DNA of 64,000 bases from Candidatus Termititenax aidoneus (GCA_003864455.1 BGZN01000005.1:9280-73279), one strand, 5' to 3'. Counted from the stretch's first letter, positions 1 through 63,173 are shown. A program made the numbers and translations. Notes: generated by a model from the sequence alone, not told the origin.

Positions 1-313
1 TCCAGAAAATAAAAAAGCTGTGTTGTTGGCTTATTTGAAACAAATAAAATATGAAACAGTTGTGGCCAATGATAAGGCTATGGAGGTGGCAGAGCGTTTT
101 GTTGACCTCAAGGTGTTGAAACAAAAAAGTTTTGATGACTGCCAGCATATCGCTGTGGCAATAATCAGTGGTTGTGATGTGATTGTGTCTTGGAATTTTA
201 AGCATATTGTCAATCATAAAACTATTGCAGGTGTTAAAGCAGTAACAGCATTGGAGGGTTATAATGATATTTTAATTTATGACCCGTCTGTTTTGGTTGG
301 AGGTGTGGATTAA
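1..313 (+). CDS. PIN-domain (VapC-like) protein, 5'-truncated by window edge
   Basis: The ORF is open to position 1. Its C-terminal motifs (D..HIAVAI..G.D.IVSWNFKHI) resemble the PIN fold. Confidence 0.45.
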   Translation, partial: PENKKAVLLAYLKQIKYETVVANDKAMEVAERFVDLKVLKQKSFDDCQHIAVAIISGCDVIVSWNFKHIVNHKTIAGVKAVTALEGYNDILIYDPSVLVGGVD

Positions 314-492
314 TGATACATGATGTCCCAAGACCTAAAATAAGTCCTAAATTTACCATAGAAGATATTCATAAACTCCGTGAATGGAATTATGAAAGAT
401 TAAAAGACGCAACGCCGGAAGAACGCTTGGCGGATAGTCGTGAAGAAATTGAAAAGTTTAACGCCGCGCTGTTGGCAATCCCGGCATTGTAA
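313..492 (+). CDS. small hypothetical protein (59 aa), ATG overlaps the PIN gene stop
   Basis: An ATGA start/stop overlap at 311-315 gives a 59-aa ORF (MIHDVPRPKISPKFTIEDIHKLREWNYERLKDATPEERLADSREEIEKFNAALLAIPAL). It falls below the ORF-track cutoff. Confidence 0.2.
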   Translation: MIHDVPRPKISPKFTIEDIHKLREWNYERLKDATPEERLADSREEIEKFNAALLAIPAL

Positions 493-514
493 TCGGCTGA
501 TTGTGGGTTCAAAT

Positions 515-1528
515 ATGTTGCGCAAAATAAATGAAAACGAAACCGCGCGGTACAACGCCTTTGTCGCGCAGGCCGCGCAGGGACATTTCATGCAGACGAC
601 TTACTGGCGCGATTTGAAATGCGCTTTTGGCTGGCAGGATGCCGGACAGTATATTCTGGAAAAAGACGGCCAAATAATTGCCGGTTTTTCGCTTCTGCTG
701 CGCGCCAAATTTGGTCTAAAAATTCTCTATGCGCCGCGCGGTGCGCTGTGGGATATCGCAGATGAGGCGGTCACGGCAGAAACTTTGAATTTTCTGAAAG
801 ATTTGGCTAAAAAACAGCGCGCTTTTTTTATCCGTATTTCGCCAGATTATCTGGAAACGGACACAACAGCCAGGCAAATATTAACCAAGCATAATTTTCA
901 CTTTTCTAGAAAACAATTGCAGACCAAAGCCACTATGCTTGTTAATTTACAGTGTTCCGAAGATGAATTATTGGCCTCATTTCACGAAAAAACTCGTTAT
1001 AATATCCGTCTGGCCGAACGCAAAGGCGTGACGGTAGGTGAATTGCAAAATGAGGCGGAACTTCAGGATTTTTACCGCATAATGGAGCAAATGGCCGCGC
1101 GGCAGGATTATAATTTGCAATCTTACGATTATTATAAGTACATCTGGCAAAGATTGCCCATCGCTAAAATTTATCTGGCCAAATACGACCGCAAAATTAT
1201 CGGCGGCGTGGTGGTTTTTTCATTCAAGGATACGGCTTATTATATGTACGGCGGCTTTGACAGCGAGTACCGCAAGGTGATGGGCAATTATCTTATTCAC
1301 CGGGAAATAATGCGGCAGGGTCAGGCCGCTGGATTGAAATATTATGACCTGCAGGGTGTGCCGTTAAGCAAAGACGAAAATCACCCGATGCACGGTTTTT
1401 ACCGTTTCAAAAAAGGCTTCAACGGACAAGAAGTGGAGTTTATTGGCGAGTATGACTTTGCGCCGCTGGGCTGGCCGTATCAGCTCTGGCAAAATTGGCC
1501 TTTTGACCGGCGGCAATATTTACAGTAG
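515..1528 (+). CDS. FemAB-family peptidoglycan bridge aminoacyltransferase (FemX-like)
   Basis: The protein is about 338 aa from the internal ATG at 515 (MLRKINENETARYNAFV...). It shows FemAB-like features (HxxxYNIRLAERKGV, YYMYGG). The upstream part of the listed ORF is probably non-coding. Confidence 0.7.
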   Translation: MLRKINENETARYNAFVAQAAQGHFMQTTYWRDLKCAFGWQDAGQYILEKDGQIIAGFSLLLRAKFGLKILYAPRGALWDIADEAVTAETLNFLKDLAKKQRAFFIRISPDYLETDTTARQILTKHNFHFSRKQLQTKATMLVNLQCSEDELLASFHEKTRYNIRLAERKGVTVGELQNEAELQDFYRIMEQMAARQDYNLQSYDYYKYIWQRLPIAKIYLAKYDRKIIGGVVVFSFKDTAYYMYGGFDSEYRKVMGNYLIHREIMRQGQAAGLKYYDLQGVPLSKDENHPMHGFYRFKKGFNGQEVEFIGEYDFAPLGWPYQLWQNWPFDRRQYLQ

Positions 1529-1551
1529 TTAATATTCCCGGCGACGATTTT

Positions 1552-1800
1552 TTAAAAATCGATCAGCTCACGTACTTTAATGTTTAAAGTTTCACAGAGT
1601 TTCATCAATTGAAGCAAAGAAATATTAGCCGTACCTTTGATCATTCGATAGTAATAATAAATGCTGATGCCGGAAGTGTAAGCCAAACTTTCTTTAGTGG
1701 GGAAACCTTTGGCTGTTCGGAATTTCTCGATCCGCTTGCCTAGCCGTTTAAATTTAGGGTTGATAATTTCCCAATAACGTTCTTTTGGCGTTCTTTCCAT
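1552..1800 (-). CDS. XRE-family helix-turn-helix transcriptional regulator
   Basis: The 82-aa protein has a typical HTH_XRE core (ISIYYYYRMIKGTANISLLQLMKLCETLNIKV). It is divergent from the Cys-rich gene and has paired palindromic operators in the shared intergenic region. Confidence 0.7.
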   Translation of the reverse strand: MERTPKERYWEIINPKFKRLGKRIEKFRTAKGFPTKESLAYTSGISIYYYYRMIKGTANISLLQLMKLCETLNIKVRELIDF

Positions 1801-1817
1801 GATAGCCCATCCTTAAT

Positions 1818-1837
1818 CCTACTTAATTGAGTAAGTT
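1818..1837. promoter_or_regulatory. operator-like palindromic site 1 (CCTACTTAATTGAGTAAGTT)
   Basis: This is the first of two 20-bp near-identical copies. Its ACTTA-N6-TAAGT dyad overlaps the -35 element. Confidence 0.5.
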
Positions 1838-1839
1838 GC

Positions 1840-1868
1840 TTGACATCTTATAAACAGCGGCTTATAAT
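1840..1868 (+). promoter_or_regulatory. sigma70-type promoter (TTGACA-17 bp-TATAAT) for the Cys-rich gene
   Basis: A consensus -35 TTGACA lies at 1840-1845. A 17-bp spacer follows, then a consensus -10 TATAAT at 1863-1868. Confidence 0.6.
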
Positions 1869-1871
1869 TAA

Positions 1872-1891
1872 CCTACTCAATTGAGTAAGTT
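1872..1891. promoter_or_regulatory. operator-like palindromic site 2 (CCTACTCAATTGAGTAAGTT)
   Basis: This second copy has a perfect ACTCAATTGAGT palindrome. It lies just downstream of the -10, at the expected transcription start. Confidence 0.5.
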
Positions 1892-1926
1892 AATTTTAAG
1901 TAACAAATATCTAAGGGGGTATGTAT

Positions 1927-3930
1927 ATGGCGCGTTACAAATATAACCTGCCGGACGGAGAGACAGCGGTTGCCGGCGGGACACCAACAACGAGTACGGG
2001 ACTAGCTGAAACGGCTGAAAATAAAACGCAGAATTATTTATCCGGCCATGAAGCTTACGCGGCGGATTACAATCAAACAGTAGCAAATCTTAAAAAAGAA
2101 TATGAACACAGGTTAGCTCCTGAAATATCCGGCACAAACACTAGTCAGGATACCGCGAAAGCGGTGGCTGCAAATACAAAGACGAATCTGGATCTGCTGA
2201 GGGATGCGGTATCCGGACAGACCAGGATAGAAGCCAGCCAGATCACGACTTTGCGTGATGCGACAATTGGTCTGGTCAACTATAACAACAGCGCTGTTTT
2301 TCCCTGGGGTGAAAATATATCAGCCCTGTCTACCAAACTTAGAGCTAAGCATCTGGAAGAAGTGCGGCAGGTCATAGACGACGCGCTAAATAACGCGCGC
2401 TGTGTGGGCGGCTGCACATCGACTTGCGGGAGAGTCTGCGGCAATGACTGTGTGGCGGACTGCAAAGCCAGCTGCGGCGCGGCCAGCTGTACCAGCGAGT
2501 GCGGCGTGGCCTGTGCCACAACCTGCGGAGACGGGTGTAAAGAAGTTTGCGGTAAAACGTGCGCGTCATCTTGCGATGACGGATGTATAGGTTCTTGCGG
2601 GACTATATGCGCGGATGCCTGTGGTTCGGTTTGCGCTACAGGCTGCGGCATAGCGTGCGCATCTACTTGCGGAGACGGGTGTAAAGACGTTTGTGGGACT
2701 ACTTGTGCCACTGCCTGTGGAACGGCTTGCACGGATGGCTGCGGCGCAGCGTGTGCAACAACTTGTGGCGACGGCTGTAAAGATGCCTGCGGTGCGATTT
2801 GCTCATCTGCCTGTGGAACGGCTTGTACGGACGGTTGCGGCACAGCATGTGCGACAACCTGCGGTGACGGTTGTAAAAATGTTTGCGGTACTATCTGCAC
2901 GACTGCTTGTGGCGACAGCTGTACAGGTAATTGTGGCAGTGTTTGTGCTGCTGATTGCGGCGCAATCTGTACAAGTGGTTGCGGCTCTGCTTGTGCGGCT
3001 TGCGGTTCAGCTTGTCAGTTTAATACCTGTAGTAATACTTGTAATGCTACAAATTACCATTATTGTAAAGATGGTTGCGGAAAATCTTGTGGTGGTCATG
3101 CCAAAACAAATATAGGAAGTTGTTTAGGAACTTGCGGCGCTGGCTGCGGTAGCGGTTGTGCTAGTTGTACTGATACATGTAACAATACTTGCGGCGGCGG
3201 TTGTGTAGACGTTTGTAGTGTTTGTGGCACAAGCTGTGCGTCTGCTTGCGGTAGCGCTTGTGGCAGTGCTTGTGGCGCAGCTTGTATGTTTGCTTGCGGC
3301 ACAATCTGCGCGGATGGCTGCGGACAAAAATGCGCGTCCACCTGTGGTGACGGGTGTAAAGAAGTTTGCGGGGCTACCTGTGCCACTGCCTGTGGAACGG
3401 CTTGTACAGACGGCTGCGGACAAAAATGCGCGTCCACCTGCGGAGACGGGTGTAAAGATGTTTGCGGTACTACCTGTGCCATTGCTTGCGGCTCGGCTTG
3501 TACAGACGGCTGCGGACAAAAATGCGCGTCCACTTGCGGCGATGGCTGTAGAGGAGCTTGCGGCGAAGCCTGTAAGTCTGCCTGTGGAACGGCTTGTACA
3601 GACGGCTGCGGGGCGGCCTGCACCTCTGCTTGTGACGAGAACTGTACAAACGACTGCAGCGGGATTTGCGCGTCCACCTGCGGAGATGGTTGTGCCGGCA
3701 GCTGCGGCAAGGCTTGTGCTTTGGGCTGCGGGGTGAGCTGCGCGGTGGGCTGTTCGCAGACCTGCGATGCGGCGTGTAATATAAATTGTAATACAGACTG
3801 CCGGAATAATTGTTATGACGGCTGTGTCAGCAGTTGTTTTAATGGCTGTGCGGAAACAAGCCGATATGAACCCTATCCGTCTGTTGTAAAAACTCCGGGC
3901 AGTAAAGCCAATCGCGCGGCGGGGACGTAG
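1927..3930 (+). CDS. Cys-tetrad repeat protein (about 125 Cys at CxxxCGxx periodicity in 32-aa super-repeats), no signal peptide
   Basis: The ORF is 669 aa. An SD (AAGGGGG) at 1913-1919 favours the ATG at 1927 over the one at 1921. The N-terminal roughly 160 aa are non-repetitive. Then come about 500 aa with a cysteine every 4th residue (e.g. CGQKCASTCGDGCKEVCGATCATACGTACTDG repeated). Antisense ORFs over this region are repeat artefacts. Confidence 0.8.
   Translation: MARYKYNLPDGETAVAGGTPTTSTGLAETAENKTQNYLSGHEAYAADYNQTVANLKKEYEHRLAPEISGTNTSQDTAKAVAANTKTNLDLLRDAVSGQTRIEASQITTLRDATIGLVNYNNSAVFPWGENISALSTKLRAKHLEEVRQVIDDALNNARCVGGCTSTCGRVCGNDCVADCKASCGAASCTSECGVACATTCGDGCKEVCGKTCASSCDDGCIGSCGTICADACGSVCATGCGIACASTCGDGCKDVCGTTCATACGTACTDGCGAACATTCGDGCKDACGAICSSACGTACTDGCGTACATTCGDGCKNVCGTICTTACGDSCTGNCGSVCAADCGAICTSGCGSACAACGSACQFNTCSNTCNATNYHYCKDGCGKSCGGHAKTNIGSCLGTCGAGCGSGCASCTDTCNNTCGGGCVDVCSVCGTSCASACGSACGSACGAACMFACGTICADGCGQKCASTCGDGCKEVCGATCATACGTACTDGCGQKCASTCGDGCKDVCGTTCAIACGSACTDGCGQKCASTCGDGCRGACGEACKSACGTACTDGCGAACTSACDENCTNDCSGICASTCGDGCAGSCGKACALGCGVSCAVGCSQTCDAACNINCNTDCRNNCYDGCVSSCFNGCAETSRYEPYPSVVKTPGSKANRAAGT
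2400..3800. repeat. in-frame tandem DNA repeats (about 12-nt tetrad period, 96-nt super-repeat) encoding the Cys-tetrad array
   Basis: The motif ggacaaaaatgcgcgtccacctgYggWgacgggtgtaaagaWgtttgcgg recurs at about 3316, 3415 and 3511. TGY-GGN codon periodicity is visible throughout the region. Confidence 0.7.
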
Positions 3931-3932
3931 GT

Positions 3933-4220
3933 ATGAAAACTCTCGCTGTGCTGACCCGCGATGATATACGCAGTCTGGAGATTGCCATAAATAAAACAAC
4001 CTGCGCTCAACAAGCGCTGCGCGCGAACGCTATACCTGCGAACGCGCCAAAAACCGCGGCGGATAGATTTTTCCGCGAGGCGATCTTTGCGTATGCGGAC
4101 GCGCAATATTTGCAGGGGTATTTCTGGCGGGATCTGGCGCGGCGGTACGGAGTGGAGCAAAAATATATGGACAGGCTACATGTGGATTTTAATACGAACA
4201 AGTTGCTTATGAATGAATAG
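3933..4220 (+). CDS. hypothetical protein (95 aa), apparently translationally coupled to the Cys-rich gene
   Basis: The start codon lies 3 nt after the upstream stop. There is no recognisable domain. Confidence 0.4.
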   Translation: MKTLAVLTRDDIRSLEIAINKTTCAQQALRANAIPANAPKTAADRFFREAIFAYADAQYLQGYFWRDLARRYGVEQKYMDRLHVDFNTNKLLMNE

Positions 4221-4586
4221 TTGGATTATTGCGCCGGAAATATTTTGTCGGACAATGTAAAACAAAGGGAGAACATGTTGTGTCGCTTCGACGCAGCTCA
4301 GCGACCGGTTGTTGTGATGCGCGAGGGCGAATATTTTGCCGGAGTAAAAAGGGCTTTAACAAGCGGATAATACGGAATGAAAAATATAGACTAACAAATT
4401 ATGTTTACAGGAAGCAAAAGCAAAAGCGCCTAACCTGTAGAGCGGAGAAATTTAGTAAATCACAGAGTTGCGCGCTGGAGGCGAACAGAAAAAATATAAG
4501 TTGCTGTACCAGAGCTTTTGCGGTTAAGAAGTTCTGGCCAGTTGCGGGTGCAGGGCGGCTTTGGAGTCCGGCGGGCATTTTCTTTG

Positions 4587-4622
4587 GATACTTTCTTTTT
4601 TGCTCGTGAAAAAGAAAGTATC
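4587..4622. promoter_or_regulatory. 14-bp-stem hairpin (GATACTTTCTTTTT-N8-AAAAAGAAAGTATC) immediately upstream of the radical SAM RBS
   Basis: A perfect inverted repeat ends 26 nt before the ATG at 4648. It could be an attenuator or processing structure. Confidence 0.35.
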
Positions 4623-4647
4623 AATTAAGGCAGAAAAGGAATAGTTT

Positions 4648-5847
4648 ATGATACCAGCTATCAAGAATTATGAGGGATTGAGTGTTACGTTCCAGGTAAC
4701 GGAGGATTGTAATTTAAGGTGTAAGTATTGTTATGAAGTGGATAAGAAGCCCGGAGATTTGCCATTTGAATATGCCAAAAAGTTTGTAGACATAATCTTA
4801 GAGGATGAAGACCCGATCAACGCCAAAGGCACGGATAGCGAGTGGATACTCCAACAAGGATTAATAATAGATTTTATCGGCGGAGACGCATTAATGACGC
4901 CGGAATTGCTGGATAAAATACTGACGTATTATCAGTACAAGGCAATAACAATGAATCACAAATGGGCGTACCGCTGGAGAGCCTCTATTTCCAGCAATGG
5001 GACATTGTTTGAAGACCAGAAAGTAAGGGATTTTATGATGAAGTATAAAGATAATCTTTCGATAGGCGTATCGGTAGATGGTTGTCCGGAGATACACGAT
5101 AAGAACCGCATACATAAAGACGGCCGGGGGACAATGAAAGATATACAGAAATGGTGGGATTGGTATTTGGAGTGGCACGGAATAGATAGCGTGGCGACCA
5201 AAGCTACGTGTAATAAAGATATGATACCTTATTTAGCCAAATCGATAAAATTCTTGCATGAGGAGATGAGATTAAAGCATATAAACATAAACTTTATCTT
5301 TGAGGATATGCACTTAACAGAGGACGACCTAAAACAACTAGACGAGGAAATGGAGAAGTCTACAACGTACATATTGGAGCACAGAAACGATTTACATGTA
5401 AGTATGTTCGATAAAGGCTTTGGCATAGGCGAGCCGCTGAAAGACCCGGACAAGGGTTGGTGCGGCTCAGGATCAATGCCGTGCCTGAGTATCAACGGCA
5501 AGATATACCCGTGTTTCAGATTTAGCCCGAACACGATGCACAGCAGGAAGTTAGATTTTTATGTAGGGGACATTTGGAATGGACTAAACCATAAAGAACG
5601 GTTTGAGATAGTCCGAAGTCAGACTAGAAAGAAAATTTCTCCTGAAAAATGTCTGACCTGTAATGTAGAGTCCACCTGCGCGTGGTGTATAGGTGGAGCA
5701 TTCGCGGAGAAGGGGGAATTTTACCGGCAGACGAATATTTGCGAGGTGCACAAACTGCAGAGCAAGTGGAGCAGGAGATACTGGGAGGAGTACGATAAAT
5801 TAGAGGGCACTAAGTCTTTCGACGAAAACGGGAAAGTGATTTTGTGA
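4648..5847 (+). CDS. radical SAM/SPASM-domain maturase (anaerobic sulfatase maturase-like)
   Basis: An N-terminal CNLRCKYC (CX3CX2C) motif is followed by GGDALMTPE. The C-terminal region has extra Cys, including CLTCNVESTCAWC, which is an exact CX2CX5CX3C SPASM signature. Confidence 0.85.
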   Translation: MIPAIKNYEGLSVTFQVTEDCNLRCKYCYEVDKKPGDLPFEYAKKFVDIILEDEDPINAKGTDSEWILQQGLIIDFIGGDALMTPELLDKILTYYQYKAITMNHKWAYRWRASISSNGTLFEDQKVRDFMMKYKDNLSIGVSVDGCPEIHDKNRIHKDGRGTMKDIQKWWDWYLEWHGIDSVATKATCNKDMIPYLAKSIKFLHEEMRLKHININFIFEDMHLTEDDLKQLDEEMEKSTTYILEHRNDLHVSMFDKGFGIGEPLKDPDKGWCGSGSMPCLSINGKIYPCFRFSPNTMHSRKLDFYVGDIWNGLNHKERFEIVRSQTRKKISPEKCLTCNVESTCAWCIGGAFAEKGEFYRQTNICEVHKLQSKWSRRYWEEYDKLEGTKSFDENGKVIL

Positions 5848-6346
5848 TTTAGTCCGGCAAATATATTTACCCTCGCGAACACGGCATAGCACTGAAGGTT
5901 ACGTTCGCTACGGGTAAAATATTTGCCGGACTGAATTTGGTGAATATTTAGCAGAGCGAATATTTTGCCGTAAGCGCGTCTGGCTCGAACTTAACAAGCA
6001 AAGCGAAGTTAAGTGAGAGTCCACCACGCGCGGCGGTAAAGATATTCGCTCTGCGGAAGGGACGGAGTGTTTAGGTAAAGTCGCTTCGACGGTTCGACAT
6101 CTCGACTTCGCTCCCTTCGGGGCTACGCTCGATGACCGCAAGCTCACCGTCCCAAGCTCAGCGACCGGTTGTTGCGATGCGCTGGCAAAGGTATTTGCCG
6201 GACGTGAATGGCCTCCCCTTGGCAAGGGGAGGCGGCTAAAAATTTGCCACAGGCAAATTTTTGGCGGAGGGGTGTTTTGCGGAGCAAAACATTGGTTCAT
6301 GTAAGGTTATTATACGAGGAACAAAAAATAAAAAGGAGGAAAAATT

Positions 6347-6721
6347 ATGACAAAGAGCAATAACGAGGAAGCAAAAGAGACGAAGCCGGAGGTGTGCCCG
6401 ATCTGCGGGAAAGTGCATCCGCAAAGAGAGGACTTGAATATTAAAGCGACACGGGACGAGGTAGAGAGCTTGATACTCATAAACAACCGGGTAAATGTGG
6501 CGGAGCAGGCGGCGCGTCCGACGGCCTTGCAGCAGGGGGTTACGCAGGAGCAGGTGCAGGTGTTCGTGAATGCGGCGCTCAATGCTAAGGCAGAGGCCAT
6601 GAATTTACAGCGGCAATGGTGGAATGAAATATTCGCCAAGTATCCGCAATTACCGAGAGACAAAAATGTGTTTGTGGATTTTGATACTTGTGATTTCTAC
6701 TTGAACTTAACGAGCAGCTAG
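6347..6721 (+). CDS. hypothetical small protein with N-terminal CPICGK zinc-ribbon-like motif
   Basis: A strong RBS (AGGAGG) lies at 6333-6338. The 124-aa ORF sits between the two radical SAM genes. Confidence 0.5.
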   Translation: MTKSNNEEAKETKPEVCPICGKVHPQREDLNIKATRDEVESLILINNRVNVAEQAARPTALQQGVTQEQVQVFVNAALNAKAEAMNLQRQWWNEIFAKYPQLPRDKNVFVDFDTCDFYLNLTSS

Positions 6722-6890
6722 GCTGCGAAGTTAAGTGAAAGTCACAAGCCGCTGAAAGCGGCGAAGTGCTAGTGCAAATAGAGCGATAGCGAAGTTACTT
6801 GTTGCTCTCACTTCACTTCGCTAACGCTTGTGAAGTTCGAGGCGGTCGCAAGGCCGCTGGAAGCGGCGAAGTGTTAGGACAGATAGCGCA
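6722..6890. repeat. REP/MITE-like dispersed repeat copy between the two radical SAM-locus genes
   Basis: The copy reads gcgaagttaagtgaaagtcacaagccgctgaaagcggcgaagtg ... cgaagttacttgttgctctcacttcacttcgc. It has internal inverted symmetry and shares words with the tRNA-flanking repeats. Confidence 0.55.
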
Positions 6891-8123
6891 GTGATAAAAC
6901 AACCATTGTATGAAACTGTTAATAAAGAATTAGGGGATTATCCCCCTGAGTATTTTTGTGAGCGATTGAGAATTTGCAGTGTGTCGCTGCAAGTAACCGA
7001 AAAATGCACGAATCACTGCCGGCATTGCGCTAATTACGGTTCTCCGCAAAACACAGCCAGTTTAGATTTTGCTGTAATTAAAAAAGTTATCGTTGAAATG
7101 CTTGAGCAAAAATATTCTCTGCTCTTACTTTGGGGCGGTGAGCCTTTTTTGTATAAGTATTTTTATGAGACTATAAAATTTGCCTTTGCTAGCGGGATAA
7201 AAGATATTGGCGTAAATACCAATTGTTTTTGGGCTGTGTCAGAAAAAGCTGTGGAGGGATTTATAAAAAAAGTAGCATCTTGGCAGAACAATGACCAAAG
7301 GCTTACCTTGTCGATTAGTTGTGATAGATTTCATCAAGAGCAAGAAGCAAGCACGCCTGTAAAAAATATTGTAAATCTAATAGCTGTGTTGGAAAGAGAG
7401 GGGCTTGATTATGATATACAGTCAATATACACCGAGAACGATACTGTTTTTGAATCAGTCTTAACAGCTCTGCGGGAAAGAAATGTGCCTGTGGATAATG
7501 TTAAAAAACGCCGAAGAGTTCTTCCTTTGGAATACATTGGCCGCGCGGCACAATTATCTCATAAGACTGATTTTGCAGCGGAATATAACTGCGCTTTTTT
7601 AAATAAAAATCCAGAAATATTGCTTTTTGTTACGGCTGGCGGGCAAGCTGTTTTTGCTGAAAATTTTGTGGGAGATAAGCTGCTGCCTTTTGGCAATATC
7701 AAAAATCAATCGCTGGCCGATATCGAAAACGAAATGAATTCTTGCAAGATCTTAAAATTGATCCGCCTCTGGCCGAAAAAATTCTTCTTTTACCCGTTTC
7801 GTAAATATTTAGATTTACAGGATTTTTGCTGCGACTTATCCGATGGTAAAATTAAAAATGCGTTTTATGTACGGGATAAAGTGACGGAAATATTACAAAT
7901 TAAAGAAAAACAATTCGACATGTCAGACAAACTGCAAGCTGCCAGACGAATATACAGCGGTGTGAATGAGCTGCCGGAACAAGAGTGTCTGGATATTATT
8001 GAGCGTTACGGTGATCTTTCCGATGTTTTTTATCTGCGGGAATTAAACGGAAAAATTACCACTGAGCAAAAAATTCAAACAATTTTAGCCACAACATTTT
8101 CTATGAGCGGAAATCAAATATAA
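6891..8123 (+). CDS. radical SAM protein (no SPASM domain), GTG start
   Basis: A CTNHCRHC (CX3CX2C) motif sits near the N-terminus, followed by LLLWGGEPFLY. The C-terminal half is not recognisable. Confidence 0.7.
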   Translation: MIKQPLYETVNKELGDYPPEYFCERLRICSVSLQVTEKCTNHCRHCANYGSPQNTASLDFAVIKKVIVEMLEQKYSLLLLWGGEPFLYKYFYETIKFAFASGIKDIGVNTNCFWAVSEKAVEGFIKKVASWQNNDQRLTLSISCDRFHQEQEASTPVKNIVNLIAVLEREGLDYDIQSIYTENDTVFESVLTALRERNVPVDNVKKRRRVLPLEYIGRAAQLSHKTDFAAEYNCAFLNKNPEILLFVTAGGQAVFAENFVGDKLLPFGNIKNQSLADIENEMNSCKILKLIRLWPKKFFFYPFRKYLDLQDFCCDLSDGKIKNAFYVRDKVTEILQIKEKQFDMSDKLQAARRIYSGVNELPEQECLDIIERYGDLSDVFYLRELNGKITTEQKIQTILATTFSMSGNQI

Positions 8124-8306
8124 ACACAGACTGCTTATAATCCGCCTGTCCAGTGGTGTCCGGCACGGTTTTCTAGGTGCGGCCGGCGATCTCCAGTTTT
8201 TTGCGGAAGCGTGTTACCAGAGCCATCGGCAGGTGAATAAAATGGTCATTGCGGCGTGATTTTCTCGCTGGGATAACGCCGGACAAAATGTTAAGATTTC
8301 CGCTGT

Positions 8307-10103
8307 ATGCAAATAGACCTGATCCGCAATTTTTCGATTATTGCCCATATCGACCACGGTAAATCCACGCTGGCCGACCGTCTGCTGGAACTGACCGGCG
8401 CGGTGTCCGCGCGGGACATGCGCGCCCAACTGCTGGACTCTATGGACATCGAACGCGAACGCGGCATCACGATCAAGCTCAACAACGCGCGTTTGAGTTA
8501 TCAGGCTTTGGACGGCAAAGTTTATGAATTAAATCTGATCGACACGCCCGGCCATGTGGATTTTAGTTATGAAGTGTCGCGTTCGCTGGCGGCCTGCGAG
8601 GGCGCGCTGCTGGTCGTGGACGCTTCGCAAGGCATCGAGGCGCAGACGCTGGCCAATGTCGGTCTGGCGCGCGAACTGGGCTTGCAAATAATTCCGGTGA
8701 TCAACAAGATCGACTTGCCGGCCGCCGATGTAAATATGGCGCAGGAAGAATTGCTCGATGTCCTGGGTATAGACCCCGATGAATGTATTTTGGCTTCGGC
8801 CAAAGAAGGCCTCGGCATACAGGATATTTTGGAAGCGATAGTGCGGCGCATACCCTGTCCGCAAAACAATAACAAGCCCCTGCAGGCGCTGATTTTTGAT
8901 TCTTATTTTGACGAGTACCGCGGCGTGGTCGCGCAGATCCGGATCAAAGAAGGCCGGATGCGCAAAGGCATGAAAATGCAGACTATGCAGACCGGCCAAG
9001 AACATGAAGTGCTGGAACTCGGCGTCAAAACTCCGGCGCTGAAACCGGTGGACGAGCTGTCGACCGGCGAGGTGGGTTATGTCATTGCCAATATCAAGGC
9101 CATTGAAGACGCGACTGTCGGCGATACTATTACCGACGCTTCCGCTCCGGCCGCCGAGCCATTGCCCGGCTACAAACCGGCCAAGTCCATGGTTTTTTGC
9201 GGACTTTTTCCGGTGGACGGCGAGCAATTTGAGGCTTTGCGCGAAGCCCTGGGCAAGATGAAACTCAATGACGCGGCGCTGCAATACGAGCCGGAAACTT
9301 CGACCGCGCTGGGTTTTGGTTTTCGCTGCGGTTTTTTGGGTTTGCTGCATATGGAAATAGTGCAGGAGAGACTGGAGCGCGAGTATGATCTCAATCTACT
9401 GGCCACCACGCCTGCGGTGGAAGTGGAAGTTGTCAAAACCAACCGCGAAATAGAATTGATCGATTCTCCGGCCAAACTGCCGCCGGTCTCCAGCATCGAG
9501 GCTATCCGCGAGCCTTTGGTCAAAGCGGTAATCATCACGCCCAACACTTACACTGGCGCGATCATGGAGCTGTGCCAGAAACGCCGCGGAATATTTCGCG
9601 ATATGGAATATCTGGACAAGACGCGCGTGCGCCTAAATTACGAACTGCCGCTTATCGAAATAGTCACCGATTTTTTCAATAAATTAAAATCTGTCTCGCA
9701 GGGTTACGCTTCTTTTGACTATGAGTTTATCGAATTTCGCGAGTCGGACATGATCAAGCTGGATATTTTGCTCAACGGCGAGCCGGTGGACGCGCTGGCG
9801 GTCATCATTCACCGCTCCACGGCGGAATCCCGCGGCCGCAAACTCTGTGAAAAACTCAAGGAGCTGATCCCCCGGCACATGTTCGAGATACCTATACAAG
9901 CGGCGATTGGCGGCAAAGTTATCGCCCGTGAAACTATCCGTGCCAACCGCAAGGACGTTACGGCCAAATGCTACGGCGGTGACGTGACGCGCAAACGCAA
10001 ACTTCTCGAAAAACAAAAAGAGGGCAAAAAGCGCCTGAAATCCGTCGGTTCTGTGGACATACCGCAGGAAGCGTTTTTGGCGATGCTGAAAATTGAAGAA
10101 TGA
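8307..10103 (+). CDS. lepA: translation elongation factor 4 (LepA)
   Basis: The N-terminus reads [22 protein letters not shown], with a GTPase G-domain. The 598-aa length is typical. Confidence 0.95.
10064..10096. repeat. 33-bp direct repeat, copy 1 (lepA 3' end), flanking the MntA/HepT cassette
   Basis: The sequence tttttggcgatgctgaaaattgaagaatgattt recurs at 10796-10828 with one mismatch. Confidence 0.8.
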
Positions 10104-10137
10104 TTTTTTAACGCAAATAAAATGATATAATAAGCGC

Positions 10138-10437
10138 ATGAGTAATTTTTTGTATAGCGTGGACGATATCAAATCCCGTGTTGCTGGTGTGGCCGATAAA
10201 TACGGTATTGGACGGGCTTTTTTGTTCGGTTCTTACGCCAGAGGCGAGGCCACTCCGCAGAGCGACATTGATATTTGCATTGAAAAAGGCCAACTCCGCA
10301 CCTTGCTGGAATTATCAGGGTTTTATCAGGATTTGGAAAAAACTTTACAGCATAAGGTCGATGTTGTGACTATGGACGGCCTGGATAATAATTTTAAGGC
10401 CGAAATAAAAAAAGAATTTGTGCTTATTTATGAATAA
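10138..10437 (+). CDS. mntA: nucleotidyltransferase-domain antitoxin (MntA-like)
   Basis: It carries the minimal nucleotidyltransferase signature LFGSYARGEATPQSDIDI. It overlaps the HepT start by 8 nt. Confidence 0.8.
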   Translation: MSNFLYSVDDIKSRVAGVADKYGIGRAFLFGSYARGEATPQSDIDICIEKGQLRTLLELSGFYQDLEKTLQHKVDVVTMDGLDNNFKAEIKKEFVLIYE

Positions 10438-10780
10438 TTCAAAAGACGCTAGTTTGCTCAAACATATTCTCAAGCATTGCGAGGCGATCATTGCCGCGCA
10501 AAAAAGATTTGGCCAGGATTTTGAAGTGTTTGCCAAAGATACAGATTATTTTAATTCTGTTTGTATGAGTTTATTGCAGATTGGTGAATTGGCCAATCAT
10601 TTATCAGCGGAGTTTCGGACTAAACACAATGTGCTGTCATGGCCGGAGATTATTGGACTGCGTAATGTTGTCGTGCATGGATATGGACAGTTGGACGCCG
10701 CTATTGTTTGGGCGACGCTTAATGAGGATGTGCCAAAACTTCTTCAGTATTGTGCTAAATTGCTGTTCTCAAGCGAATAA
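10430..10780 (+). CDS. hepT: HepT-like HEPN toxin (DUF86)
   Basis: An R-x4-HxY HEPN motif (LRNVVVHGYG) is present. The start is likely the ATG at 10430, overlapping the mntA stop. Confidence 0.8.
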   Translation: MNNSKDASLLKHILKHCEAIIAAQKRFGQDFEVFAKDTDYFNSVCMSLLQIGELANHLSAEFRTKHNVLSWPEIIGLRNVVVHGYGQLDAAIVWATLNEDVPKLLQYCAKLLFSSE

Positions 10781-10795
10781 ACAAAGCCAGAAACA

Positions 10796-10828
10796 TTTTT
10801 GGCGATGCTGAAAATTGAGGAATGATTT
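10796..10828. repeat. 33-bp direct repeat, copy 2 (duplicate of the lepA 3' end)
   Basis: It matches 10064-10096 except for one substitution (gaa to gag). Confidence 0.8.
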
Positions 10829-10922
10829 CAAATAATTTTGACGAAAAAATAATTAAAAAATTACTATAATATCCGCCCGGTTTAAGTTATAATCCTTACA
10901 CAAATTAAGTGGAGGAGATTTT

Positions 10923-11684
10923 ATGCAATTTCTCATTTTGATATTGATCGTTGCGGCGGTGGTCGTTTTGGCTTCGGTCAAGCAGATCAATCAATATGAG
11001 CGCGGTCTGCTTTTTTCTTTTGGCCGGTTTACGAAAATTTTGGAACCGGGCTGGCGGCTGGCGCTGCCGGTAATCCAGTCTTTTGAGAAAGTGGACATTC
11101 GCACCAAGGCTGTCGATGTGCCGCCGCAGGACGCCATCACACGCGACAATGTTTCGATCAAGATCAACGCCGTGATTTATTACAAAGTTTTTGACGCGGG
11201 CAAGGCGATCATCGAAGTCGAGAATTTTTATTACGCCGTGAGCCAACTGGCGCAGACTACCATGCGCAACACTGTCGGCTCGGTAACGCTGGACGAACTG
11301 CTGACCGACCGCGAAAAAGTTTCCAGAGAAATCTGTTCGATCATCGACAAGCTGACTGACCCGTGGGGCATCAAAGTTGAGAATGTCGAGTTGAAAGATA
11401 TTGCTTTGTCCGAAGAAATGAAACGCGTCATCGCCAAAGTCGCCGAAGCTGAACGCGAAAAACGCGCGGTCATCACCAAAGCGGCCGGCGAAGTCGAGGC
11501 TGCGGAAAATCTGGCCAAAGCCGCTTCGCTCATGGGACAGACACCGGGCGCACTGCATTTACGCACGCTCTCCACGCTCAATGATTTGAGTTCCGACCAG
11601 TCCAACACAGTAATTTTTGCCGTGCCGGTCGAAGCTTTGCGCGCGCTGGAAGGCCTGGCTAAACTGGCGGAGAAAAAAGCCTAA
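10923..11684 (+). CDS. SPFH/band-7 (stomatin/HflC-like) membrane protein
   Basis: An N-terminal TM helix is followed by an SPFH core (YERGLLFSFGRF...ITRDNVSIKINAVIYYKV). The RBS is GGAGGAG. Confidence 0.85.
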   Translation: MQFLILILIVAAVVVLASVKQINQYERGLLFSFGRFTKILEPGWRLALPVIQSFEKVDIRTKAVDVPPQDAITRDNVSIKINAVIYYKVFDAGKAIIEVENFYYAVSQLAQTTMRNTVGSVTLDELLTDREKVSREICSIIDKLTDPWGIKVENVELKDIALSEEMKRVIAKVAEAEREKRAVITKAAGEVEAAENLAKAASLMGQTPGALHLRTLSTLNDLSSDQSNTVIFAVPVEALRALEGLAKLAEKKA

Positions 11685-11715
11685 ACGCATCAAAAAAAGC
11701 GGGGTAAGCGGGGGC

Positions 11716-12813
11716 ATGTTCGGGCTCTATATTCACATTCCGTACTGCCTGCAAAAATGCCGCTACTGCGATTTCGTGAGTTTTCCGGTAAATTCTGTCC
11801 CTGACGCTTACATCGACACTTTGTGTTTTGAAATTAATGGGTATTTTTCTGCTGATAGTGGGTATAAATATAGTGATAATATAATATCGACAATATATGT
11901 CGGAGGGGGGACGCCGAGTTTGCTGTCCGCCGGGCAGCTAGCCCGGATAATCGCAAGCGTGAAAAATATTTTTGCGGTGGCGGACGGCGCGGAATTTACG
12001 CTGGAAGCCAATCCGGAAACTTACGCGAAAGAAAAATTCGCGGCCTATCGAGCGCTGGGCGTAAACCGGATTTCTTGGGGCGTACAGTCTTTTCAGCCGG
12101 AATATTTGCGGTATTTAGGACGGGCGCATTCGCGGGAAAAAGCGGCCGAGGCTTTGCGGGGCGCGCGGGAAATTTTCGACAATGTCAGCGTGGATTTGTT
12201 GAACAATTTGCCCGGGCAGACTCTGGAGCAAAGCGCGGCGGATTTGCGGACGGCGGTGGATTTTCAGCCGCGGCATATTTCCTGCTACGAGCTGACTGTG
12301 GAGCGCGGCACGCCGCTGGCTGCAGAAGGCGGCACGCCGCTGGCCGCGGAAAAAACCGTCCGCAGCGAATTGGAGGCCGAAATGTATTTGCAGACAAAAA
12401 AAATTTTGGCGGAAAACGGCTACGCGCAATATGAGATTTCCAATTACGCGCAGGCCGGTTATGAGTCCAAACACAATTTAGCCTATTGGTCAGATGAGCC
12501 GTATCTCGGCGTGGGGTTGGCCGCGCATAGTTATGACAAAGCCGGTGGTCGGCGCTGGGCGAACACGCGCAATCTCCAGGATTATCTCCGCAGGATTTTT
12601 CACCGCGAGACAGAGACGGAAAATGCTTTTAACAAAATCCTAATGGGCTTGCGCAAAAACAGCGGCATTCCCGAATCCTATCTCAACGCGCGCCAAAAAG
12701 CCGCTGCCCAAAAATTAGTTTCCGAGGAATTGCTGGCCTGGCAAAATAATAATTTGTGCGCGACCAACCGCGGACGCTTGGTTTTAAATCAAATACTGCT
12801 GGAGTTAATGTGA
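11716..12813 (+). CDS. hemW: radical SAM heme chaperone HemW (HemN-like, oxygen-independent coproporphyrinogen oxidase family)
   Basis: The protein begins MFGLYIHIPYCLQKCRYCDF at the internal ATG at 11716. It is HemN-like throughout. Confidence 0.85.
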   Translation: MFGLYIHIPYCLQKCRYCDFVSFPVNSVPDAYIDTLCFEINGYFSADSGYKYSDNIISTIYVGGGTPSLLSAGQLARIIASVKNIFAVADGAEFTLEANPETYAKEKFAAYRALGVNRISWGVQSFQPEYLRYLGRAHSREKAAEALRGAREIFDNVSVDLLNNLPGQTLEQSAADLRTAVDFQPRHISCYELTVERGTPLAAEGGTPLAAEKTVRSELEAEMYLQTKKILAENGYAQYEISNYAQAGYESKHNLAYWSDEPYLGVGLAAHSYDKAGGRRWANTRNLQDYLRRIFHRETETENAFNKILMGLRKNSGIPESYLNARQKAAAQKLVSEELLAWQNNNLCATNRGRLVLNQILLELM

Positions 12814-15800
12814 GAAAACTTTGGACAATTTTGTTGATCTTGCTGCTGCTGCCAGCGGCAGCCAAAGACCCGATGAAGCGCGGCAAGTCCGCTTTTCAGC
12901 CCGGCCGCGCCTATCCGCAGGTGGATATTTCCGGCTATGAAGAATTGGAATTTAATACTTTAGAGCAGTCCGGCGATCCGCAAAAATACCAAAACACAGC
13001 TGAATATTTAGGTCTGCCGGCTTCGGTTAAAGTTTACGACGGTTTGCGCCACCGCCGCTTGATCGACCTTGAAGGCCAGATCAACGAAAAACTTTACGTG
13101 CGCTACAAGATTACCCAGGACCCCGACCTGCCGCAAGAAACGGACATTTATGTCGAGTATGATAAATTCTCAGTGTATTTTGGCAAGTATGACGCCGCTT
13201 TGGTCAACGGCGATATGTTTTCGCTGGGCAAAGGCATTGACGGACTGCACGCCGATTATCTGGACAAGGATTTTGAACTGGAGGCGATTTACGGCGAGGA
13301 GCGTTCGCATGAGCGCGAGTTTTCTTTTCAGGGTTCGGGCAAACGCGAGTACAGCCTCGGCCAGACAAATATTGTGGAAGGCACGCTTAAGATCCGTCTG
13401 AACGGCAATGAGCTTTCGGAAAACGACTACCGCGTGGATTATTTTGACGGCATAATCGTTTTTGACAAAATCCTTTCCGTGCTGGACAAGATCGAAGGCA
13501 CATACGAATATCTGGACCCAATCGAAGATTTTTTGCCGATCTCTTCCAAAATTCGTTTGAGCGGCGTCCAGCACCGCTACAAAGCTTATCGCGGCTCTGA
13601 ACCGATAATTATTACGGCGGACGCGCTGTATCAATACGAGCCGGCGCTCAATGAGCCGGTGGCTGCGCCGCCGGACGCTTTGCGCGCGGCGACGAGTTTT
13701 GCTTATCAAGACGGCGAATTAAATATCGCGGTGCAGCGCGGCGCGGAGCAGGCGGTTTATTTACACTATCTTAACGAGCGTATTCCTTTGCAGCCAGCAG
13801 AAGATACCGGCGCCTGGACTTTGACTATGCCGCTCACGCAGGGCGGACAAGAAGCGTCCCTGGATTATGAATTTGCGGATTATACTTTGCGGCAGGAATA
13901 CCGGCTTTATTTGGAAAAACCGGATATTTGCGATTACCGCGTGTCCGCCGGTTATCAAGTCCTTTTGCCGGAAGGCGTGGTTAATTTTACGCGCGACAAG
14001 TTTACCCAAAACGAAACACTGCATTTTATTTTCCGCGCGTCTGACAGCCTGCCCGAAAAAATCCTGGTCAATTTTCAAAATGACGCGCAGGAATTGCAGC
14101 TCTCCAACGGAGAGTTTGTTTTCGACCGCCGCTTACTTGAGGAAACGGCCGGCGTGAAAAATTTTTATTTAATATTCAATCACGGCGCTGCAGACGAAAA
14201 GGCGCGCAAAGTGCCTTTTGCGGTGGACTACGCGCCGGTCGAGACCGGAGTTTTAGAAAAAATCCAACTGGCGGATTTTCCGGTGATCTCTTTTACGGAA
14301 AAAGTTTATTTTGAAGGCAGGCTGCTGACTGCCAATCAGGATTATAAATTAAACTACGCGACCGGCCTGCTGACTTTTTTGCGGCCGCTGCCGGCGGATA
14401 CTTATGCCTTGAAAGTTGAGTATGTGTACAATCAGACCCGCGCGGCGCAGGAAATCATCAAAGGCCGCGACTCGCAGGGGCCGTATGCTTTGGCGCACAG
14501 TTTGCTGGTGCCGGGCAGCGCGGTGATCATGGTCAATAATCTCAATATGATCGAAGGCGTGGACTACACTTTGGATCCGCGCACCGGCGCGCTCAGTTTT
14601 CCGCGGCGCATCAATTCGGTCGACGCTATACAGGTCAATTACCGTTATTTTGATTCACTGCTGCCGGCAGAGCTGCAGAAAAAAGAGCAGTTCACAATCA
14701 GCAGTTATTATGTGCAGGAGCAGGCCAAGTCCGCGGAAGGCGAGGGGTTGGAGTCGCATACGCTTTCCGGCGGAGACCTCAGCGTAACCAGCAGCTATGA
14801 CGCAGTCAGCCAAAACTGGCTTACGCTGATCACTATCTCAACTAAATATTTGCCGATTACCAAATTCGGCGAAGTGCAGGTTGACGGCAGTAAAGTCGAT
14901 ATTCTGGCCAAGTCTGAATATAACGGGCGGCTGGTCATTTCCGGCAATTACACGGACGCCAATCGTATCAAGGTTTCTTTTGACCAAGGCCAGGCTGCGC
15001 AGGCGCCGCAAATTTATTTTCGGAATAACGCTATGTTAACAGAAATAGTTCTTGACGAGATAACTTCTTTTGCCAGGCCGATCCTTTACGGCTCGGTTGT
15101 TTTAGAAGTGCGGCGGAAAAATGATCCTTTTTATATTCCCCTGGTGCAGAACCGCGATTATATTATGGGACGGGGAAGTGATTTGCTGTCCGGATACGCC
15201 GGCAATGGCGATGCGCTTGTTTCGGATAATGCGGAGGTTTGGCAGCGCGGCATTATTACTTTTATTACGGGCAATGCTTATACTCCTTACTATGCGTACA
15301 ATGGTTTCGGTCCGGACGATGATTTCCGCCTGACTTACAAAATTTCCAACGCCGAAAGCACCGACCCGGGCGATGTTCTGCATCAGACTTACGGCACAAA
15401 ATTCGCTTACTCGCCGACGGACTGGCTGCGCGCCGATGTGGAATACAATGAAAGCCGCAAGCGTTATCAGCGTGCTTCCGCGCAGGAATCGGTTACAAGC
15501 AACGGCTCCGGTTACGCCGGACAGGAAATCAATATTTTGAATTTATTAAAAAATAGAAGTTCGGCCTACAACAGCTTGACTAATTTGGAAATCGTCGAAG
15601 ACAGCGAAAAAGTTTATATCAATGACCGGCTGCAGACCAAAAACGATGGGTACACGCTGGCTTACAACGGCGGAGTTTTGCGTTTTCATTCCGGTCTGGC
15701 GTTGTCGCCAGCCGATATAGTACGGGTTGATTTTAGTTATTACAGCAGCGGTGTCGGCGAGCAGGAGCAGTTTGACGAAAAAGCCAAGGCTGCCAAAGTC

Positions 15801-46859: not shown

Positions 46860-47035
46860 GTGCCAAGCCGACGGCTGGCTCTCGTGCGTAACGTAAATTA
46901 TTTTCGTGTTGTAAACTCGTCACTTCGGCGGCTGCGCCGCCTTGTGGCTCTCACTTAACTTCGCGGCCGCGCCGCTCGTTAAGTTCGAGTGACAATTTGC
47001 GCGTTTCTCAATGCGCGCAAATTGATACCAAGCGC
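46860..47035. repeat. REP/MITE-like dispersed repeat copy between aspartate aminotransferase and tRNA-Lys
   Basis: It shares words with the repeats at 5990-6130, 6722-6890, 25556-25625 and 63365-64000. Examples are ctctcacttaacttcgcg (reverse complement of cgcgaagttaagtgagag) and an agccgacggct hairpin. Confidence 0.55.
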
Positions 47036-62876: not shown

Positions 62877-63173
62877 CGCTTGAAACTCTCCCTCGTCTAA
62901 ATTCATACCCATTTTCCGGTAAAATATACCTGACGCCCCTGCGTCAGGTACTTCCGCGCGCGCATTGTGAGACGCGCGCGGTCGTACCATAATAGTAGTA
63001 TTTATTTTTGCCGCCCCTGCGATCCGGTCGCTGAGCCTGGGACGGTGAGCTTGTATCCTGCGGATACGCTGGCGAACCGTCGAAGCGTCGGTCGTATCAT
63101 GCTGATTTTTATATCGACATATATGGTAGATATATGTATTGATTTTTTCTGGGGCTTATTTGTAATTAGCCTC

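Follow-up and report, generated by a model that had tools for sequence, protein, structure and literature searches.

The stretch of the Candidatus Termititenax aidoneus genome analyzed here (GCA_003864455.1, BGZN01000005.1:9280-73279; 64,000 nucleotides, referred to below as the window) encodes near its beginning a protein in which a cysteine recurs at nearly every fourth residue. Its gene, called the target gene below, belongs to a cassette that also encodes a radical S-adenosylmethionine (rSAM) maturase with a SPASM region (rSAM1) and two small accessory proteins, and that is preceded by a divergently oriented gene for an XRE-type regulator. The target gene and its partners comprise the following features (window positions).

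1927..2400, + strand: cysteine-free head of the target protein, 158 amino acids (aa), with the N-terminus MARYKY, a helical region, and the pre-array helix KLRAKHLEEVRQVIDDALNNAR
2401..3849, + strand: CxxxC array, 119 Cys within 483 aa, 111 of 118 Cys-to-Cys intervals equal to 4
2641..2891, + strand: super-repeat block 1, 96-nt/32-aa period in Tandem Repeats Finder (TRF), 2.6 copies, 78 % match
3316..3611, + strand: super-repeat block 2, 96-nt/32-aa period in TRF, 3.1 copies, 84 % match
3850..3930, + strand: C-terminal tail that follows the final Cys, AETSRYEPYPSVVKTPGSKANRAAGT and a stop codon, a local form of the motif [NST]-S-x-R-x-G-[TSA]-D
3933..4220, + strand: accessory protein A (orf95), 95 aa, TIGR04116-like
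4648..5847, + strand: rSAM1, radical SAM/SPASM maturase, 399 aa, with TIGR04115 as best match
6347..6721, + strand: accessory protein B (orf124), 124 aa, with an N-terminal CPxCG..H zinc knuckle and an alpha-hairpin on a three-stranded sheet

The target frame is open from 1921 to 3930 on the + strand (669 aa). Translation probably starts at the ATG at 1927, giving 667 aa, because a Shine-Dalgarno sequence (AAGGGGG, 1913-1919) lies 7 nt 5′ of it; the N-termini of homologues (MARYKY) agree with this start. In the 669-aa numbering, the first cysteine is residue 161 and the last is residue 643, and the few intervals that depart from 4 measure 3 (three times), 5 (twice), 8, and 11. In 10,000 shuffles of the array, the number of 4-residue intervals averaged 12.5 and never exceeded 27, which bears out the regular spacing described in the original prediction, a model's reading of the same DNA. 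The 32-aa super-repeat noted there is also real (identity at non-Cys positions is 0.37 at a lag of 32, as against 0.1-0.2 for most other lags), but it was credited with eight or more copies; seven copies, in two blocks, have at least 20 of 32 residues identical to CGQKCASTCGDGCKEVCGATCATACGTACTDG, and one is exact. The array consists of 24.5 % Cys, 17.7 % Gly, 14.2 % Ala, 11.1 % Thr, 8.0 % Ser, and 6.6 % Asp. Its tetrads are mainly of the form C-G/A/T-x-x, with Gly at position 2 in 48 of 111; at position 3 (i+2) Asp occurs most often (24 of 111), position 4 is mainly Ala, Gly, or Thr, and the tetrad CGDG occurs eight times. With 119 Cys, this is the largest array in the study. Scans of the target protein and its head with Pfam, NCBIfam, and PHROG gave nothing significant.

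So repetitive a gene could be a product of assembly or annotation, either a collapsed or expanded array or a noncoding GC-rich repeat. Genes of this family are indeed hard to assemble and annotate: contigs of two homologous loci (L001 and L002) end inside the gene, and a third homologue (L091) was called as 191 aa. Because gene callers shorten such genes and contigs break inside them, few family proteins are found in databases. The window gene itself, though, keeps a frame open for 2 kb with perfect Cys phase; its repeat copies are 78-84 % identical at the DNA level, with no exact repeat of at least 50 nt anywhere in the gene, and independent metagenome-assembled genomes (MAGs) encode orthologues (662 aa with 112 Cys in L003, 495 aa with 79 Cys in L004, and about 548 aa with 89 Cys in L091) that have in common with it the head, its C-terminal tail, and the tetrads that open the array. 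Phage relatives, described below, have 44-92 Cys. An artefact is therefore very unlikely to judge from these sequences, and the exact length of the array depends on the current assembly.

The head has no transmembrane segment or hydrophobic N-terminus, and the predicted absence of a signal peptide is confirmed (maximum Kyte-Doolittle value 0.42 in a 15-residue window over the first 60 aa). In the head alignment (A1) mean column identity is 71 %; no part of the family is as well conserved as the segment in front of the array, and a conserved helix (...HLEEVRQVIDDALNNAR) directly precedes the first Cys. For residues 1-273, AlphaFold2 predicted the head to be helical, with moderate confidence (block-mean predicted local distance difference test [pLDDT] 61-83 over residues 41-160). 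With the head alone as query, a word-indexed database yielded four proteins only, each consisting of a head and a CxxxC tail; an exhaustive search with a head profile and hidden Markov model (HMM) found 33 proteins at E<1e-3, in nearly all of which the head is followed by a Cys array. Several members of the head family (466-688 aa) carry extra N-terminal domains, including Laminin_G_3 and Lcl_C. At the other end of the protein, the tail motif ends most family members, and tails such as CAHTSRYGTDPAN, CANSARQGADASG, CANSQRIGTSPS, and CTTTSRVGTDAGAL recur among bacterial and viral members. In a human-gut phage scaffold (MT837480, L090), a 175-aa CxxxC open reading frame (ORF; 2219-2743) upstream of an rSAM gene begins with a Tat/Sec-like sequence (RREFFKNAAKSVLPILG), from which some members of the wider family appear to be exported.

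The host is a termite-gut bacterium of the Margulisbacteria, and the closest relatives of rSAM1 (81-91 % identity) are encoded by MAGs of Candidatus Margulisbacteria, Candidatus Termititenax persephonae, and Candidatus Termititenax aidoneus; exact-sequence look-ups of rSAM1, P0013, and P0174 gave no match. The best NCBIfam match of rSAM1 is TIGR04115 ('radical SAM peptide maturase, CXXX-repeat target family'; 274.8 bits, E=1.3e-81), followed by the PapB (150.5 bits), QhpD (84.6), SCIFF maturase (80.4), and CcpM (77.8) families, all of them Cys-directed thioether maturases; it also matches phrog_1802 (149 bits), and models of the anSME type only weakly (41-49 bits). By these profile scores rSAM1 is a divergent sister clade, not an equivalog, of TIGR04115. 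The CX3CX2C cysteines (21, 25, and 28) and seven SPASM cysteines (272, 289, 335, 338, 344, 347, and 365) are invariant in 18 homologues. The latter form the pattern C272...G284-x4-C289, C335-x2-C338-x5-C344-x2-C347, C365, a region spanned by the NCBIfam alignments and on which the Pfam SPASM model stays below threshold. The closest solved structure is CteB (5WGG/5WHY, E=2e-18), of which residues 100-429 align with residues 14-364 of rSAM1. Because the alignment starts at the catalytic domain of CteB (residue 100), rSAM1 lacks the N-terminal RiPP recognition element (RRE; about 100 aa) of the CteB, QhpD, and SCIFF enzymes, RiPP standing for a peptide that is made by the ribosome and modified after translation.

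These families offer three partial models for the chemistry. PapB forms Cys-Asp and Cys-Glu beta- or gamma-thioethers and tolerates CX0-6D spacings (PMC9413430). The PapA/PapB (freyrasin) system is like the cassette in that an rSAM/SPASM enzyme introduces more than one in-line Cys thioether into a core that is Cys-rich and repetitive, and it is the second-best family for rSAM1, though below the NF047865 cut-off of 340 bits. PapA is a short leader-core peptide with six CX3D motifs, whereas the target has 667 aa, Cys at i+4, and Asp at i+2 in about a fifth of the tetrads. QhpD, described together with NxxcB and CteB, introduces multiple Cys-to-Asp/Glu thioethers within a protein subunit that is kept in a larger assembly (PMC10114670). 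QhpC thus resembles the target as a whole-protein substrate that stays structural and is not released as a peptide, but it has few crosslinks and no CxxxC array, the QhpD score is far below its cut-off of 453 bits, and QhpD has an N-terminal extension (rSAM1 aligns from model position 95). SCIFF and CteB share with the cassette the rSAM plus SPASM architecture and a Cys-rich substrate; they differ in the RRE (CteB residues 1 to about 100) and in substrate size, SCIFF peptides having about 45 aa and 6 Cys.

The choice of acceptor is constrained by the arrays themselves. The original prediction had proposed the periodic Asp residues as crosslink acceptors, which does not apply generally: an Asp content of 6-7 % is confined to the arrays of the window, L003, and L004, whereas other related proteins (those of L083, L085, L087, and phage SPN3US) have 0-2 %. 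The Asp-rich tetrads CGDG, CK[DE]V, and CTDG may be a lineage-specific addition. A PapB-type CX3D motif is impossible in the target because residue i+4 is always Cys, and because Asp is lineage-specific, any family-wide acceptor must be Gly, Ala, Ser, Thr, Asn, or a backbone carbon. rSAM1 might also modify its target by another chemistry, such as sactionine formation (S to C-alpha), conversion of Cys to formylglycine or a dehydro residue, or intermolecular polymerizing links. SPASM enzymes catalyze all of these reactions, rSAM1 has the weak anSME-type matches mentioned above, and with no acceptor side chain common to the family a backbone C-alpha or Ser, Thr, Gly, or Ala fits better than a PapB-like Asp. 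The strongest matches after TIGR04115 are nonetheless to families of the non-alpha thioether (ranthipeptide) type, PapB, QhpD, and SCIFF/CteB, and the sactisynthase and anSME models score far lower, so that a chemistry of this kind is rather unlikely. By analogy with those enzymes, we lean somewhat toward thioether links as what rSAM1 would make in the array.

The two accessory proteins are paralogous (31 % identity, E=4e-10), and both are closest to TIGR04116 ('CXXX repeat peptide modification system protein'), the best family for accessory B and the sole family reported for accessory A. The AlphaFold2 model of accessory B (pLDDT 83) is a long alpha-hairpin on a three-stranded sheet, and in a PDB profile search only the CPxCG..H knuckle found matches, to zinc fingers. 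The possibility that these proteins are stand-alone RREs was considered and rejected on the AlphaFold2 model and on the Foldseek results (best match E=0.24, no RRE among the matches). Orthologues of accessory A occur in L003, L004, and L091. A search with the accessory protein found 28 homologues, all in Margulisbacteria, with two to three distinct locus tags per MAG; among loci whose rSAM protein is at least 47 % identical to rSAM1, accessory homologues occur in all the bacterial ones and in 13 of 15 viral ones (all but L100 and L101), where the gene usually lies just upstream of the target.

The cassette is conserved as a unit. The order target, accessory A-like, rSAM1, accessory B-like is kept in L003 (with an rSAM1 91 % identical), L004, and L091, and the trio of accessory, target, and rSAM1 genes also occurs in L083, L085, L087, and 13 IMG/VR loci. 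Target and rSAM1 genes, about 0.7 kb apart in the window, are neighbors in every related bacterial locus and in 28 of the 32 viral loci. L091 is a second cassette in the MAG of L001, and because of this pair and the two to three accessory locus tags per MAG the cassette is taken to be multi-copy. The cassettes of L001, L002, and L091 lie among toxin-antitoxin, Abi, or PIN genes, which suggests that the cassette is mobile. Given the three co-occurring genes, the family to which rSAM1 is assigned, and a conserved helix in front of the first Cys, the role of the target protein as a substrate of rSAM1 is the best supported part of our interpretation, and we regard it as quite probable on sequence grounds.

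More distant relatives lead to phages, the nearest ones lying on jumbo-phage contigs close to genes for baseplates or large structural proteins. Relatives of rSAM1 at 47-73 % identity are found partly on non-viral metagenome contigs of 46 % GC (L083 and L084; target of 359 aa with 56 Cys), and many are on low-GC contigs of 200-390 kb or on IMG/VR viral contigs. Baseplate wedge genes of the gp25 and gp6 types are found on a 224-kb contig (L085), which also has a gene for a homing endonuclease. On a 203-kb contig (L087) the target, of 543 aa, contains an inserted domain matching phrog_19691 ('virion structural protein', E=3.6e-15) and is preceded by proteins of 1040 and 1006 aa. PF27846 matches this target and the homologue P0004 faintly. 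In IMG/VR, a CxxxC ORF lies directly upstream of the rSAM gene in 28 of 32 loci, encoding up to 92 Cys (L105) or 80 Cys (L095 and L096); PHROG scans of the neighbors in L096 and L105 added little. In L083, two tandem target copies (3-851 and 1920-2999) flank a 161-aa ORF and an accessory gene and adjoin two GT2 glycosyltransferase genes; the L083 product could possibly be glycosylated as well.

Among cultured phages, 75 records contain relatives of rSAM1 at about 30 % identity, in SPN3US-like jumbo phages of Salmonella, Erwinia, Cronobacter, and Proteus. In SPN3US itself (NC_027402), three unannotated CxxxC ORFs of 133, 134, and 73 codons (stop to stop) lie between a virion structural protein gene (gp099) and the rSAM genes gp102 and gp103 (annotated names), at these positions.

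L089 5085-5483, 5497-5898, and 5902-6120: SPN3US CxxxC ORFs, upstream of gp102/gp103

The annotated gp100 (143409-143744 of the record) looks mis-framed. The leaders of these CxxxC proteins recur in conserved form in about 70 phage genomes, either left without annotation or labeled 'hypothetical'. The SPN3US-like phages (Seoulvirus and Erwinia jumbo phages) resemble the window in having CxxxC proteins directly upstream of an rSAM protein 28-31 % identical to rSAM1, in a virion-structural region; their CxxxC proteins differ in being about 130 aa long with 20-23 Cys, rich in Ser and Gly, devoid of Asp, and preceded by a different leader of about 50 aa. The accessory HMM detected no TIGR04116-like protein in these phages, and nothing relevant was found in the literature searched on SPN3US radical SAM proteins, Cys-rich jumbo-phage proteins, or tail-fiber thioethers. 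In Bacillota, loci with maturases 30-34 % identical to rSAM1 (the classical TIGR04115 neighborhood) have CxxxC targets of 52-243 aa that are weakly recognized by TIGR04114, TIGR04117, and TIGR04118. The absence of a signal peptide agrees with the earlier view of the target as cytoplasmic, but the lectin-like and virion-protein fusions of its relatives and their location in phage structural regions suggest an extracellular or particle-associated product.

The cassette stands close to the CXXX-repeat system (targets TIGR04114, TIGR04117, and TIGR04118; maturase TIGR04115; TIGR04116; PF27846), which it resembles in having tandem Cys-x-x-x tetrads beside a maturase and small proteins whose best matches are TIGR04115 and TIGR04116. 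It differs in the size of its target (667 aa, 119 Cys, and a 158-aa head, against 18-98 positions in the named target models and 52-243 aa in related loci), its two accessory paralogues, its putative XRE control, and the clade that it has in common with jumbo phages. TIGR04114, TIGR04117, and PF27846 gave no significant match to the window target, probably owing to composition filters, although 111 of its 118 intervals fit the CxxxC pattern. This kinship raises the question of whether the target could be a multi-core RiPP precursor, in which the head would be a long leader and the modified array would be cut into small thioether peptides, for instance of 32 aa, acting as antimicrobials or signals. 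The nearest named families are short precursors of 46-98 aa, Bacillota relatives have targets of 52-88 aa, the 32-aa unit recurs seven times, and XRE-controlled cassettes among toxin-antitoxin and Abi genes (L001, L002, and L091) are typical of conflict systems. Set against this are the absence of any conserved protease, transporter, or immunity gene from the cassette; the continuity of the array, which has no recurring cleavage motif and is mostly not made of repeated units; the conserved tail, which together with the likewise conserved first and last tetrads suggests that the whole chain matters; and the relatives with large globular domains fused to them and genes in the structural regions of phages. 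We consider processing into small peptides quite unlikely.

The density of Cys also invites a reading of the array as a thiolate metal or Fe-S polymer for storage, detoxification, redox buffering, or fiber stabilization, possibly lying along the axis of an oligomeric fiber, with a minor or different role for rSAM1. A Cys content of 24.5 % with small partner residues and the anaerobic gut habitat of the host bacterium would suit such a polymer, and some phage fibers hold axial metal ions. The array, however, has neither Cys-Cys nor Cys-X-Cys (intervals of 1 or 2 are absent, and there are three of 3), and its intervals are almost exclusively 4, so that it lacks Cys clusters of the metallothionein type; it differs from metallothioneins also in its 667-aa length and its link to an rSAM maturase. 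A metal polymer would leave to be explained the strict co-occurrence with a thioether-type rSAM/SPASM maturase across bacteria and phages, and would give no obvious reason for the conserved head and tail, the lectin-like fusions, or the encoding by phages. The metal-sink, Fe-S, and redox-buffer roles of the original prediction received no positive support from the sequences, with which metal binding is nonetheless compatible, and we regard a metal polymer as improbable.

Our analysis favors, with a probability of roughly 0.55, the reading that the target protein is an oversized substrate stapled by rSAM1 with many thioether crosslinks and is probably a structural fiber of phage origin. The head would act as a recognition handle, its helix being placed where a RiPP leader would be, and the two paralogous accessory proteins would assist rSAM1. 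The enzyme would work along the array, turning many of the 119 Cys thiols into intramolecular thioethers to carbons of nearby residues, and the resulting ladder of small rings would make a rigid rod, resistant to reduction and proteases, of a chain rich in Gly, Ala, and Ser. Expression would be gated by the divergent XRE repressor through palindromes that flank the promoter. The mature product would be a fiber or appendage of phage origin, as opposed to a diffusible peptide, metal store, or redox buffer, and termite-gut Margulisbacteria keep the cassette in several chromosomal copies. The sequence pattern, the conservation of the gene trio, the family relationships, the occurrence in phages, and the layout of the promoter and operator-like sites are observed; we infer the modification itself, its thioether chemistry, the acceptor residues, the mode of recognition, the repressor role, and the function as a fiber. 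Because of the phage distribution and the fused lectin-like and virion-protein domains, a fiber of phage origin is the most economical account of the product; taken on its own, the claim that the mature product is a structural fiber is tentative.

Several observations weigh against the stapled-fiber reading. All three components fall short of curated family cut-offs: the TIGR04115 score of rSAM1 (274.8 bits) is below 350, the TIGR04116 scores of accessory proteins B (24.6 bits) and A (16.3 bits, E=0.008) are below 50, and the target has no HMM match. The accessory protein does not resemble an RRE. For the head, neither PHROG nor Pfam gave a match, tblastn of the head against 50,697 phage genomes (INPHARED) gave no match, and Foldseek comparison of the head with BFVD and PDB gave nothing at E<0.3 (weak TssK matches were disregarded). 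AlphaFold2 modeled the array with too little confidence (pLDDT <45) to bear on a solenoid or beta-helix, neither of which it produced. The window locus is chromosomal (femAB-lepA); phage genes, an export system, and an anchoring signal are all missing from it. Nor do the members of the family have any one conserved acceptor residue in common, Asp being lineage-specific. The literature searched contained no experimental work, product, or chemistry for the CXXX-repeat family, and because no characterized member was found the modification and its chemistry are argued from homology alone. To our knowledge, enzymes of this class offer no precedent for the modification of some 119 sites in a single polypeptide.

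The regulator gene and the region between it and the target gene provide the elements expected to control the cassette.

1552..1800, - strand: XRE/Cro-type helix-turn-helix (HTH) regulator, 82 aa, Pfam HTH_26 (E=9.5e-8) plus HTH_3 and HTH_19, divergent from the target gene
1821..1832, no strand assigned: palindromic operator-like site ACTTAATTGAGT, upstream of the -35 hexamer
1840..1868, + strand: sigma-70 consensus promoter, TTGACA-17-TATAAT, 12 of 12 positions
1875..1886, no strand assigned: perfect palindrome ACTCAATTGAGT, a second operator-like site, just downstream of the -10 hexamer

The two promoter-flanking sites are the sole matches to the ACTTAATTGAGT/ACTCAATTGAGT palindromes in the 64-kb window. 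From this arrangement the palindromes are putative operators of the XRE protein, which would repress the cassette. A divergent HTH gene directly upstream of the target is also found in L001, L002, and L091, and sister loci likewise have strong promoters, each flanked by its own, different palindromes.

Two further features lie within or just beyond the cassette.

4587..4622, + strand: perfect A/U-rich hairpin of 15 bp (dG about -21 kcal/mol, z -2.4), a short way 5′ of the rSAM1 start codon
6891..8123, + strand: rSAM2, 410 aa, Radical_SAM 37 bits, YydG model 53 bits (cut-off 300)

In L003 the hairpin is conserved to 97 %. It is not accompanied by a U-tract, and a possible role would be to adjust the ratio in which target and enzyme are expressed. 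It lies in a spacer of about 430 nt between the accessory A and rSAM1 genes (4221-4647) that is absent in L004. An ORF of 126 codons in this spacer (4229-4609, 'orf126') was rejected as a gene, its sequence being junk-like, its conservation being at the DNA level only, and the spacer being missing in L004. In positions 1-12000, Rfam recognized no RNA family. The intergenic spacers of the cassette (4295-4343/6155-6202 and 6741-6784/6845-6889) and two distant sites in the window (46921-46967 and 63024-63053) have in common short dispersed repeats of 30-50 nt with 82-97 % identity; some also occur in spacers of L003, L091, and L092, and they may be elements like repetitive extragenic palindromes (REP) or miniature inverted-repeat transposable elements (MITE).

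The rSAM2 gene sits between the accessory B gene and lepA, whereas in L003 the accessory B orthologue is followed directly by lepA. It was rejected as a member of the system, being absent from L003 and without a homologue in any related locus, and it has no specific similarity to the second rSAM proteins of phage loci. The earlier suggestion that the target is a substrate of the adjacent rSAM enzymes accordingly narrows to rSAM1, for which synteny and the CXXX-target family match speak; rSAM2 is not co-conserved.

The locus is chromosomal, with femAB upstream and lepA, ruvB, ftsH, and recG downstream, and the remainder of the window is ordinary chromosome (ruvB, ftsH, recG, glnA-III, rnfC, and an SLT transglycosylase gene). 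About 9 kb downstream of the cassette, a 1787-aa ORF (12756-18119) has a short DUF2460 stretch, a domain of phage or gene transfer agent (GTA) tail proteins, and is without other annotation. The - strand has an ORF of 5019 aa (47931-62990) that begins with a subtilase S8 domain and also contains Ig-like domains (Big_5) and a beta-helix region; it probably encodes a protease or surface protein of giant size. A 675-aa ORF (38412-40439) is situated within a strongly purine-skewed stretch (AT skew 0.28, GC skew 0.27), has only fragmentary repeat-like Pfam matches, and probably encodes a low-complexity repeat protein.

The CXXX-repeat family is already known bioinformatically from Haft's families and PF27846. 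What is new relative to those families is the size of the array, the folded head and conserved tail, the duplicated accessory proteins, the putative XRE switch, the multiple copies, and the clade that includes jumbo phages. SPASM maturases have been studied almost entirely as makers of small peptides; here one is tied to a protein of 667 aa that has a folded head and offers 119 candidate sites, and the stapled-fiber reading, if true, would bring RiPP chemistry to a structural protein of full size and into virion assembly. Thioether stapling of the arrays, if borne out, would provide the CXXX-repeat family with a first function and point to a way of obtaining extremely crosslinked, reduction-proof protein rods. 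The SPN3US-like phages of Salmonella and Erwinia, whose targets have been missed or mis-framed in annotation, are cultivable and offer a tractable system for the function of the family. A broader proposal, which we hold to be doubtful, is that CxxxC proteins form an unrecognized structural class, a virion fiber of jumbo phages, stapled by a phage-encoded rSAM enzyme with tens to about a hundred thioether rings, that was domesticated, expanded to 119 Cys, and multiplied in XRE-switched cassettes by ectosymbiotic termite-gut Margulisbacteria, possibly as surface or attachment fibers. The copies in Margulisbacteria hint at a role in this poorly understood ectosymbiosis.

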